From an uncultured Clostridium sp. (GTDB lineage: Bacteria; Bacillota; Clostridia; TANB77; CAG-508), in contig USEM01000004.1 of assembly GCA_900553695.1 (NCBI GenBank), positions 1,200 through 65,199 of the forward strand: a DNA stretch of 64,000 nucleotides, given 5' to 3'. Of the stretch, positions 14,678 through 15,294 are shown one piece after another. A model generated the notes under the pieces. That model was given only the letters and a program-made list of their open reading frames with translations, was not told the origin of the DNA and did no database searches. Position numbers and translations under genes: made by a program. Every line of letters begins with the position of its first letter. Positions within the stretch are counted from its first letter, which is position 1.

Positions 14678-14753
14678 TCCCCGTTAGCTCAGTTGGTAGA
14701 GCGCTCGGCTGTTAACCGATAGGTCGTTGGTTCAAGTCCAACACGGGGAGCCA
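14678..14753 (+). tRNA. tRNA-Asn (GTT), CCA encoded
   Basis: Acceptor tccccgt/acgggga, D-arm gctcagttggtagagc, anticodon loop ctGTTaa, T-arm gttggttcaagtccaac, discriminator G plus CCA. Confidence 0.95.
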
Positions 14754-15294
14754 CAAGAATGAAAGTAGTAATTAGAAAATTACTACTTTTTTTTCGACCT
14801 ATCGGTGTTACAGCCGAGGAAGCGAGGATGTTAACTGCTTTAAAGTTTTTGCGCTTCCAGTGGAAGCAAAAGCAAAAACATTAAAGACGCTAAAACTGGC
14901 ATTTCAGAGCTTTGCGAAAGCAAAGACTGAAATGGCTAGTTTTGAGATGGGCGTCGTTGGTTCAAGTCCAACACGGGGAGCCACAAGAATGAAAGTAGTA
15001 ATTAGAAAATTACTACTTTTTTTTCGACCTATCGGTGTTACAGCCGAGGAAGCGAGGATGTTAACTGCTTTAAAGTTTTTGCGCTTCCAGTGGAAGCAAA
15101 AGCAAAAACATTAAAGACGCTAAAACTGGCATTTCAGAGCTTTGCGAAAGCAAAGACTGAAATGGCTAGTTTTGAGATGGGCGTCGTTGGTTCAAGTCCA
15201 ACTAAGGTCGAGCCACAAGAATGAAAGTAGTAATTAGAAAATTACTATTTTTTTTTCGACCTATCGGTGTTACAGCCGAGGAAGCGAGGATGTG
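14723..15294 (+). repeat. 230-bp tandem repeat (2 exact copies plus a variant partial copy), each starting with the tRNA-Asn 3' half
   Basis: 14723-14952 and 14953-15182 read identical by eye. A third copy at 15183-15294 has acacggggag replaced by actaaggtcgag and one C-to-T change in the terminator stem. Confidence 0.95.
14764..14795 (+). terminator. terminator after tRNA-Asn (repeated in each unit at +230 and +460/462)
   Basis: agtagtaatt-agaa-aattactact followed by a T8 run. Confidence 0.8.

Follow-up and report, generated by a model that had tools for sequence, protein, structure and literature searches.

A tandem repeat derived from tRNA-Asn with a predicted tRNA-like fold in uncultured gut Clostridia

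The 64,000-nt stretch of DNA analysed here (the window; positions 1,200 to 65,199 of contig USEM01000004.1, assembly GCA_900553695.1, from an uncultured Clostridium sp.) carries a short tandem array behind a gene pair for 5S rRNA and tRNA-Asn. All coordinates given are positions in this window. Judged by its predicted fold, the repeated unit of the array may quite possibly represent a gene for a tRNA-like non-coding RNA (ncRNA) of about 190 nt, which derives from tRNA-Asn, is present in one or two copies per locus and is followed by terminators of its own, an assignment we favour tentatively. It draws on a sequence variant that closes an acceptor-like stem, on a block of 192 nt without a single difference between two lineages, on the high identity of paralogous copies, on the gain of the module within one lineage, on nucleotide changes that keep the pairing, and on the lack of a conserved open reading frame (ORF). 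The anatomy, predicted fold, distribution and conservation pattern of the unit, as well as the unit-free site of a sister species, are described as they were found in the sequences compared.

Anatomy and predicted fold of the repeat unit

As reported by Tandem Repeats Finder, the array at 14723-15293 shows a period of 230 bp, 2.5 copies and 98% matches. Its first two copies (14723-14952 and 14953-15182) are identical at 230/230 positions, and the third (15183-15293) is a 111-nt partial copy with 105/111 identical positions, which contains TAAGGTCG where the other copies have ACGGGG. As the tRNA-Asn(GTT) gene is placed at 14678-14753, the repeat begins inside the tRNA, namely at the border of variable loop and T stem (14723), and the direct repeats run through the tRNA 3' end; in the last 31 nt of tRNA-Asn (14723-14753), the block of T arm, acceptor strand and CCA that recurs in the array appears for the first time. 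The preliminary description of this DNA had proposed a 230-bp tandem array seeded by the 3' half of tRNA-Asn, which is in full agreement with these data. It had further noted an inverted copy of the tRNA anticodon arm, and this is confirmed by the 25 nt at 14795-14819, which agree with the reverse-complemented anticodon arm and variable loop at 22/24 positions with one gap, a value reached by 0/500 shuffled sequences; a perfect 12-nt inverted repeat (I13) is also listed for the array. Likewise, the two long hairpins recorded there, one of 49 nt (14838-14886, H1) and one of 57 nt with a GAAA loop (14890-14946, part of H2), recur in the minimum free energy (MFE) folds, with z values of -6.6 for the plus and -6.3 for the minus strand. 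An origin of the unit body as a degenerate 5S rRNA or tRNA gene was considered and rejected, since the remainder of the unit shows no significant similarity to the tRNA and the 5S gene. No further copies of the unit are present within the 64-kb window, and an Rfam search of the region from 8 to 18 kb (E-value mode, E <= 1) assigned nothing to it.

The unit is better framed as running from the last U of the upstream T-run to the terminal ...GCCA, followed by its own terminator. The sequence taaggtcg in copy 3 had been described as a replacement of the acceptor strand which mimics the variable loop of the tRNA. The replacement is evident, but the idea of mimicry probably misses its meaning, and the sequence is better accounted for as a partner strand for the 5' end of the unit itself: TAAGGTCGA of the last copy is perfectly complementary to TCGACCT, the 7 nt that directly follow the T-run of the upstream terminator (AGGTCGA/TCGACCT). 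Because of this exact complementarity, the RNA from 15024 to 15215 is predicted to close as a tRNA-like fold. Its MFE structure (192 nt, -78.8 kcal/mol, z = -7.3) equals the centroid structure. UCGACCU (15024-15030) pairs with AGGUCGA (15205-15211), followed by a discriminator G (15212) and CCA (15213-15215), and the T arm at 15186-15202 is the same as that of tRNA-Asn (GUUGG-UUCAAGU-CCAAC). From the segment corresponding to 14795-14819 come the 5' acceptor strand (CGACCU) and a small hairpin that occupies the position of a D arm and whose loop region contains U-GUU-A. The next, weak hairpin (14819-14841 in unit 1) takes the position of the anticodon arm; its GGATGTTAAC matches GGCTGTTAAC of the tRNA at 9/10 positions, a similarity that is not significant by itself, and it competes with the base of H1. 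The 57-nt hairpin within H2, together with its base, abuts the T stem in the fashion of a long variable arm. The same fold is predicted for the rRNA-linked allele. The elements of the fold are listed in Table 1.

For the unit carrying the tRNA-type 3' strand ACGGGGA (unit 1, 14794-14983), closure with its own 5' end is not possible. In RNA that is read through in full, this unit can instead use the 5' strand of the real tRNA for closure, and its reversed arm can then pair with the genuine anticodon arm. The unit might therefore be read as a cis-acting element of read-through RNA, in which the reversed arm forms a duplex of about 22 bp with the upstream anticodon arm and variable loop and ACGGGGA pairs with the tRNA 5' strand, creating a double-stranded site for processing or decay, e.g., by RNase III, that clears mis-terminated precursors or separates the tRNA from the downstream mRNA. 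The arm is complementary to the tRNA at 22/24 positions, the MFE fold of the 538-nt read-through RNA uses exactly these pairings, and ACGGGG units are found in many strains. Nevertheless, we regard this explanation as very unlikely: an older diverged copy of the array has kept the small hairpin by compensatory changes while losing its complementarity to the unchanged tRNA, the predominant TAAGGTCGA form closes on itself, co-transcriptional folding would be expected to favour the tRNA cloverleaf first, and the conservation of H1 and H2 is left unexplained. An RNA that pairs with tRNA-Asn, one of three interpretations offered in the preliminary description, is thus conceivable for read-through precursors alone and conflicts with the behaviour of the diverged copy.

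A coding function of the unit was also considered and rejected. The only ATG-initiated ORF encodes 41 aa (14759-14884; MKVVIRKLLLFF...), starts 8 nt past the GGAG of the tRNA acceptor end and spans the terminator, the reversed arm and H1. It is probably no gene, because its ATG is lost in the rRNA-linked alleles, which have AAA instead.

Distribution, conservation and origin

Contigs for comparison were gathered via the neighbouring gene for a 169-aa protein, by a metagenome scan with a pattern of hairpin 1, and via a radical-SAM gene of the second locus. The array is present in many independent human-gut assemblies, among them one contig of 810 kb (L105), and it is conserved well past one strain, which removes the suspicions that it might be an assembly artefact or be confined to a single strain. 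It occurs behind at least three different 5S–tRNA-Asn genes, namely behind the orphan 5S gene upstream of uvrA (this window), behind the 5S gene at the end of an rRNA operon that is followed by a small membrane-protein gene (L098, L101, L104-L109), and behind an rRNA-operon 5S gene followed by a Nudix-like gene (L100). All three loci share the order tRNA-Asn, terminator, 192-nt module and terminator. Past the last terminator, the uvrA locus continues with a partial copy of 39 nt and the membrane-protein locus with about 11 nt or with an old diverged remnant; the Nudix locus has no such sequence. At least two of these loci probably coexist in one genome, since L098 and L102 come from the same assembly. 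A dispersed miniature inverted-repeat transposable element (MITE) was rejected as a candidate, as 7/7 metagenome matches sit behind 5S–tRNA-Asn.

A sister species (L110), whose neighbouring protein is 79% identical, contains a 5S gene, an identical tRNA-Asn, one terminator, about 90 nt and the orthologous small membrane-protein gene. The site lacks the reversed arm, the hairpins and a second T arm, which identifies the module as a gain specific to the lineage studied here. Beyond this relative, searches returned no informative contexts: in 80 GTDB species representatives, the uvrA relatives are not preceded by a 5S gene, tRNA-Asn or the array, the best UvrA matches being metagenome-assembled genomes (MAGs) with 85% identity and relatives of Clostridium sp. 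CAG:273 (uncultured Clostridia); no synteny is seen around the more distant homologues of the 169-aa neighbour; the 300-aa radical SAM protein, used as a query, yielded only near-identical proteins of the same species; and homologues of the small membrane protein are mostly located on short contigs without a tRNA.

The comparison of the Nudix locus (L100) with a membrane-protein locus (L105) reveals how the conservation is distributed. Identities amount to 95.9% in the 3' part of the 23S gene, 94.7% in the 23S-5S spacer and 91.4% in the 5S gene, followed by 76/76 positions in tRNA-Asn, 36/40 in terminator 1, 192/192 in the module and 35/40 in terminator 2, beyond which the sequences are unrelated. 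The edges of the perfectly conserved block coincide with those of the predicted RNA, and Fisher tests separate the unit from the terminators (p = 1e-5) and the unit body from the 23S gene (p = 0.004). Paralogous loci within one assembly follow the same pattern, with 97.5% identity in the unit body, about 88% in the terminator and 85% in the 5S gene. When all variants are considered, 51% of the terminator columns are variable vs 10% of those in the unit body (p = 2e-8), a contrast that is somewhat inflated, because one old terminator is included. Among the three interpretations mentioned, a structured RNA family fits best, considering the closed tRNA-like fold and the sharply bounded block of perfect conservation.

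Some of the variation follows the predicted structure. The forms UCGACCU, GUGACCU and UUGAUCU of the 5' acceptor strand all retain 7 pairs with AGGUCGA by way of G·U pairs, and GCGACCU, the commonest 5' strand at the rRNA-linked loci, keeps 6 pairs with G1 opposite A. An A·A mismatch at the base of H1 is changed to G-C in two alleles and to G·U in another. In the old diverged copy (L101, L099), the stem of the small hairpin has changed from TCGG/CCGA to TTGA/TCAA, which corresponds to two compensated pairs, and UGUUA is retained in the loop; the complementarity of this hairpin to the tRNA, which itself is unchanged, has been lost. These observations are suggestive but thin. The closing variant terminates the last copy in 17/23 arrays of the focal lineage and does so in all three genomic contexts. 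Regarding copy number, 19 of 24 contigs of this lineage carry one unit ("1.5 copies"), 5 carry two and none carries zero. Unequal crossing-over should produce losses as often as gains, yet contigs without a unit number 0/24, which is counted in favour of an RNA gene.

Much of the array could also have arisen by neutral rearrangement, an explanation that appears unlikely to us. Template switching during replication near a heavily transcribed tRNA and its terminator would have generated the inverted arm, the two palindromes and the tandem tRNA 3' ends with terminators, and gene conversion together with unequal crossing-over among tRNA-Asn loci would have spread the block and kept it uniform, with a benefit consisting at most in extra tandem terminators that shield the co-oriented downstream gene. 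Indeed, each recognisable part copies local sequence in direct or inverted orientation, and H1 and H2 are near-perfect palindromes. The copy number is polymorphic and the alleles are mosaic, with the ACGGGG/TAAGGTCG variants and the terminator types shuffled between copies and loci; deletions between short repeats occur, covariation is absent and several changes break stems, while the sister species manages with a single terminator and without a unit. However, gene conversion leaves unexplained why terminators of 10-12% divergence surround a unit identical at 192/192 positions, and neither the fact that losses to zero units are never seen despite gains nor the predominance of the stem-closing variant at all three loci is accounted for.

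An origin as attachment (att) sites, by contrast, was suggested by the preliminary description in the form of decayed tandem sites. Repeated tRNA 3' ends are routinely filed as integration scars in genome annotation. Partial tRNA genes commonly derive from integrating elements (PMC9897764). Applied to the array, a tiny remnant of about attP size, similar to a cis-mobilizable element (CIME), would have been moved in trans by a tyrosine integrase acting at the T loop of tRNA-Asn and would have accumulated in tandem. The repeat boundary lies on the 5' side of the T stem, a classic sublocation of att sites in tRNA genes, and the same insertion is found behind three different tRNA-Asn genes. The sister species displays a clean empty site, and in one further metagenome contig (L004) the synteny is lost precisely at the 3' end of the tRNA, whose T loop differs by one single-nucleotide polymorphism (SNP). 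The repeat boundary and the empty site are therefore the parts of the proposal that hold; an empty site is, however, equally expected for a newly gained RNA gene. Against it, the unit, the tRNA 3' end and the TAAGGTCG variant are unmatched in 50,697 phage records, 72,556 plasmids and IMG/VR: BLAST of the unit against the phage and plasmid collections gave no match, and pattern scans of IMG/VR with H2, the reversed arm, the TAAGGTCG variant and the tRNA-Asn 3' end gave 0 matches. No integrase is found among the called neighbours (about 8 kb on each side of the uvrA locus and about 4 kb downstream of the rRNA-linked locus), which are housekeeping genes, and the sole tyrosine recombinase among the 21 larger window ORFs scanned, a set that leaves three size-matched ORFs unscanned, is Xer-like and 40 kb away. 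Moreover, the repeated block runs 45-80 nt past the tRNA with a right end that differs per locus, the crossover point between ACGGGG and TAAGGTCG is inconsistent between alleles, and a circle of 230 bp would be a poor recombination substrate. An att origin is therefore judged to be very unlikely, and the att reading that such repeats usually receive finds little support here. Retrons, group II introns, integron attC sites and IS200/605 ends were rejected as well, as no reverse transcriptase, transposase or integrase is encoded nearby and no dispersal is seen.

The interpretation of the unit as an RNA gene itself has to be weighed against a number of features. In the predicted fold, a 2-nt bulge separates the T stem from the acceptor stem, and the hairpin at the D position has a 6-nt loop (GUUACA) without GG, i.e., without a D loop of the G18-G19 type. 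ARAGORN and the Rfam tRNA model call only the real tRNA-Asn and never the unit, which sits behind a terminator and for which a promoter scan found no separate promoter. The closing stem takes its two strands from the tRNA segment AGGUCG, one directly and one inverted, so their complementarity could be a by-product. The perfect identity between lineages could also reflect recent transfer or gene conversion, and all sequences compared belong to one narrow clade of low diversity, in which 11 variants include 0 pairs changed on both sides, 5 changes of the wobble type and about 6 that break pairs, mostly in H2. Finally, 6/23 arrays end in the tRNA-type ACGGGG and are unable to close on the 5' end of the unit, and one unit (the second of L104) has suffered a 48-nt deletion.

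Relation to known tRNA-like RNAs and possible function

The closest known counterparts, which work similarly, are the YrlA-type Y RNAs and the transfer-messenger RNA (tmRNA, SsrA); the unit belongs to neither of them. YrlA of M. smegmatis possesses a 7-bp acceptor stem, is cut by RNase P and receives an added CCA (PMC4201824). YrlA and other Y RNAs resemble the unit in being ncRNAs that mimic the T arm and acceptor stem of tRNA and combine a tRNA-like domain with long extra helices. Unlike in the unit, the ends of YrlA form a stem that binds Ro60, and its gene lies beside rsr, whereas the ends of the unit form the acceptor stem with an encoded CCA, its T arm is taken verbatim from tRNA-Asn and its gene follows tRNA-Asn. 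The unit has no Rfam match to this family at E <= 1, and neither rsr nor a TROVE/Ro60 gene is present among the annotated neighbours examined. In tmRNA, as in the unit, a large inserted domain is framed by tRNA-type features, namely a T arm, a CCA tail and an acceptor stem in which the two RNA ends pair. The unit differs from it by the lack of a tag ORF and of predicted pseudoknots and by a size of about half that of tmRNA; ARAGORN detects no tmRNA and there is no match to the corresponding Rfam clan. A G3·U70 pair is absent from the unit, because C2-G71 and G3-C70 are ordinary pairs.

Compared with a canonical tRNA, the predicted fold contains a 7-bp acceptor stem, a discriminator, CCA and a T arm with a TΨC-type loop, while the anticodon position is taken by a bulged hairpin with a loop of 8 nt instead of the canonical 5-bp stem and 7-nt loop. 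The idea of a canonical tRNA with insertions was rejected: even with H1 and H2 deleted in silico, ARAGORN still misses the intended fold and returns only spurious calls of low score. Class II tRNAs share with the unit an arm that emerges directly 5' of the T stem (H2 in the unit), but the extra arms of the unit comprise about 110 nt vs 13-21 nt in class II tRNAs, and a canonical D arm is missing. Viral tRNA-like structures also combine acceptor and T features of the tRNA type with otherwise non-canonical parts. The partial tRNAs left at att sites by CIMEs or tandem accretion correspond to the array in their direct repeats from inside the tRNA to its 3' end and in the occurrence of empty and filled sites among relatives (PMC9897764). 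They differ in that the array shows no cargo, integrase or related attP, that its repeat includes the terminator and more, and that its only 'cargo' is a structured block of 158 nt which is more conserved than the adjoining rRNA genes.

With respect to gene arrangement, small RNAs (sRNAs) from the 3' external transcribed spacers (3'ETS) of tRNA operons may be mentioned. These RNAs, such as 3'ETS-leuZ of E. coli, are short unstructured sponges located upstream of the terminator. The unit and the 3'ETS sRNAs would both be functional RNAs from the trailer of a tRNA transcript, but the unit is a large tRNA-shaped module downstream of the terminator and has a terminator of its own.

For the expression, processing and function of the unit we infer the following course from its position and fold. 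Transcription from the strong promoter of the rRNA operon or of the 5S–tRNA-Asn pair would leak past the AT-rich terminator, RNase P would cut at the base of the 7-bp stem, and 3' trimming would halt at the encoded CCA. The product would be a stable tRNA-shaped RNA that engages part of the tRNA-Asn machinery, with RNase P, the CCA enzyme, T-arm modification enzymes, EF-Tu, asparaginyl-tRNA synthetase (AsnRS) or aspartyl-tRNA synthetase (AspRS)/GatCAB, and an Asn T-box as candidate partners, and it could serve as decoy, sponge or regulator. The copy number would change between one and two by unequal crossing-over between the repeated blocks of T arm, CCA and terminator, and the same shared homology would let the unit spread among tRNA-Asn loci.

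It is conceivable, though somewhat doubtful, that the unit stands for an undescribed class of tRNA-shaped ncRNA, matured by RNase P together with 3' trimming and acting on the tRNA-Asn system as decoy or regulator. Such a class would be characterized by about 190 nt, a 7-bp acceptor stem, G73, an encoded CCA, the T arm of tRNA-Asn, loops bearing GUU and two giant arms; it would have been born from tRNA-Asn by inverted and tandem duplication and be co-transcribed behind it, with a gene copy number that shifts through unequal crossing-over. Its targets might include an anticodon nuclease, an Asn T-box, or the enzymes AsnRS or AspRS/GatCAB. Provided that the unit is expressed, it would offer a rare view of the birth of a tRNA mimic, in which the parent tRNA, the derived RNA and the empty ancestral site are all visible and the sequences directly reveal the individual steps, from inverted copy and tandem copy to the new acceptor strand. 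In that case, it would also add a bacterial type of tRNA-like ncRNA that is missing from Rfam and provide a testable handle on the use of tRNA look-alikes, e.g., in the Asn-tRNA pathway of abundant uncultured gut Clostridia. If it is not expressed, the array nonetheless illustrates clearly how the ends of tRNA and rRNA operons evolve in concert and vary in copy number.

The parent locus and its neighbourhood

The features of the array and of the gene pair preceding it are compiled in Table 1.

Table 1. Features of the 5S–tRNA-Asn locus with its array, and elements of the fold predicted for the RNA of unit 2 (numbered from the first nucleotide of that RNA).
Feature	Position	Strand	Basis
Sigma-70-like promoter TTGATT-17-TATAAT of the stand-alone 5S–tRNA-Asn operon	14518..14546	+	10/12 consensus matches; function inferred
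Orphan 5S rRNA gene, paralogue of the rRNA-operon 5S	14553..14669	+	Rfam 5S_rRNA, 79.7 bits
tRNA-Asn(GTT), CCA encoded	14678..14753	+	ARAGORN; Rfam tRNA, 69.2 bits (14678-14750)
Terminator 1, AT-rich 12-bp hairpin, then T8	14762..14794	+	Inverted repeat I16 and sequence
Unit 1 of the putative tRNA-like RNA, 190 nt, tRNA-type 3' strand ACGGGGA	14794..14983	+	Fold prediction
Reversed anticodon arm and variable loop	14795..14819	+	22/24 match; loop and compensated stem in diverged copy
Weak hairpin, anticodon-arm position, loop region A-U-GUU-A-A	14819..14841	+	Direct repeat D5 and predicted fold
Hairpin H1, 49 nt	14838..14886	+	Predicted folds
Hairpin H2, GAAA loop, 6-bp base GACGCU/GGCGUC	14886..14955	+	Predicted folds
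Terminator 2	14992..15024	+	Inverted repeat I17 and sequence
Unit 2 of the putative tRNA-like RNA, 192 nt, closed version	15024..15215	+	MFE fold; 192/192 block
Terminator 3, one C-to-T stem change, T9	15224..15256	+	Sequence and inverted repeats
Trailing partial copy, reversed-arm hairpin and linker	15257..15293	+	Comparison with other loci
Acceptor-like 7-bp stem	RNA 1-7 with 182-188		Predicted fold
Small hairpin from the reversed arm, 6-nt loop GUUACA after U13 (U-GUU-A)	RNA 9-24		Predicted fold
Weak hairpin, loop GAUGUUAA containing U-GUU-A-A, 9/10 identical to tRNA anticodon loop region	RNA 26-48		Predicted fold
H1	RNA 52-86		Predicted fold
H2, 6-bp base abutting the T stem	RNA 93-162		Predicted fold
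T arm, identical to that of tRNA-Asn	RNA 163-179		Predicted fold
GCCA tail, unpaired	RNA 189-192		Predicted fold

The stems of the terminators consist of 12 bp and are followed by 8-9 T. A simple GC-based terminator scan does not call these AT-rich hairpins, because the stem contains only 2 G-C pairs; they are maintained by compensatory changes among the variants. The trailing partial copy probably lies outside the functional module, as it is absent or shorter at the other loci.

Small deletions inside the arrays fall between short direct repeats. The 48-nt deletion of L104 lies between GCAAAAGCAAA and GCGAAAGCAAA and removes half of H1 and half of H2, and a deletion of about 68 nt between the motifs CTATYG...TATTTTG is apparent in the trailing remnant of L098, L104 and L105 when compared with the last copy of L101. 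In the contig L004 (1-7432), the identity to the window ends at position 14753, and the single SNP in the T loop is a change from A to G. The sequence beyond the tRNA contains unrelated genes (ABC fragments, PdaC, a xanthine permease, an ECF sigma factor and a dockerin protein), which makes the contig either a product of rearrangement between tRNA-Asn genes or an assembly chimera. It also documents that somewhere a tRNA-Asn 3' end is followed by a plain terminator without a unit.

The orphan 5S gene has no 16S or 23S gene upstream and directly precedes tRNA-Asn. Its comparison with the rRNA-operon 5S gene of the same assembly (L098 vs L102) yields 85% identity, with helix I changed on both strands, and it may represent a divergent 5S paralogue. 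A 12-mer, GATAGGTCGTTG, is present both at the 3' end of the orphan 5S gene (14652-14663) and at the border of variable loop and T stem of the tRNA (14718-14729). The core of this 12-mer, AGGTCG, and its complement recur across the array, and the rRNA-linked 5S gene carries GATAAGTAGTTG instead. The 169-aa hypothetical gene adjoining the 5S promoter (13676-14185, minus strand) belongs to a hotspot of divergence (window region 13297-14215): in L091, identities are 88% for the protein and 93% for the DNA, compared with 98.6-99.2% in the flanks, and 13297-13510 fails to align. A type A RNase P RNA is encoded at 12102-12457 according to Rfam. The Xer-like recombinase gene mentioned above (55347-56330, minus strand, 327 aa) lies close to rho and spoIIM. 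Among NCBIfam models it scores best with XerC (245 bits) and XerD (225 bits), in each case under the equivalog cut-off.

On the other side of the array, uvrA is represented by an ORF of 819 aa (15360-17819) and a second one of 129 aa (17794-18183), as one extra base within 17800-17822 splits the gene. The window reads 'gga ctt c ggt tac att aaa' at this place vs ...YDVGLGYIKLGQ... in a relative with an intact gene (L011), and skipping the C after CUU restores the full protein. With its CUU-CGG context, which presumably includes a rare Arg codon at 30% GC, the site looks similar to the prfB-type sites of programmed +1 frameshifting; alternatively, the frameshift may be fixed, or UvrA may truly consist of two pieces. 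The same split is called in all 9 uvrA-containing loci compared and in L091.

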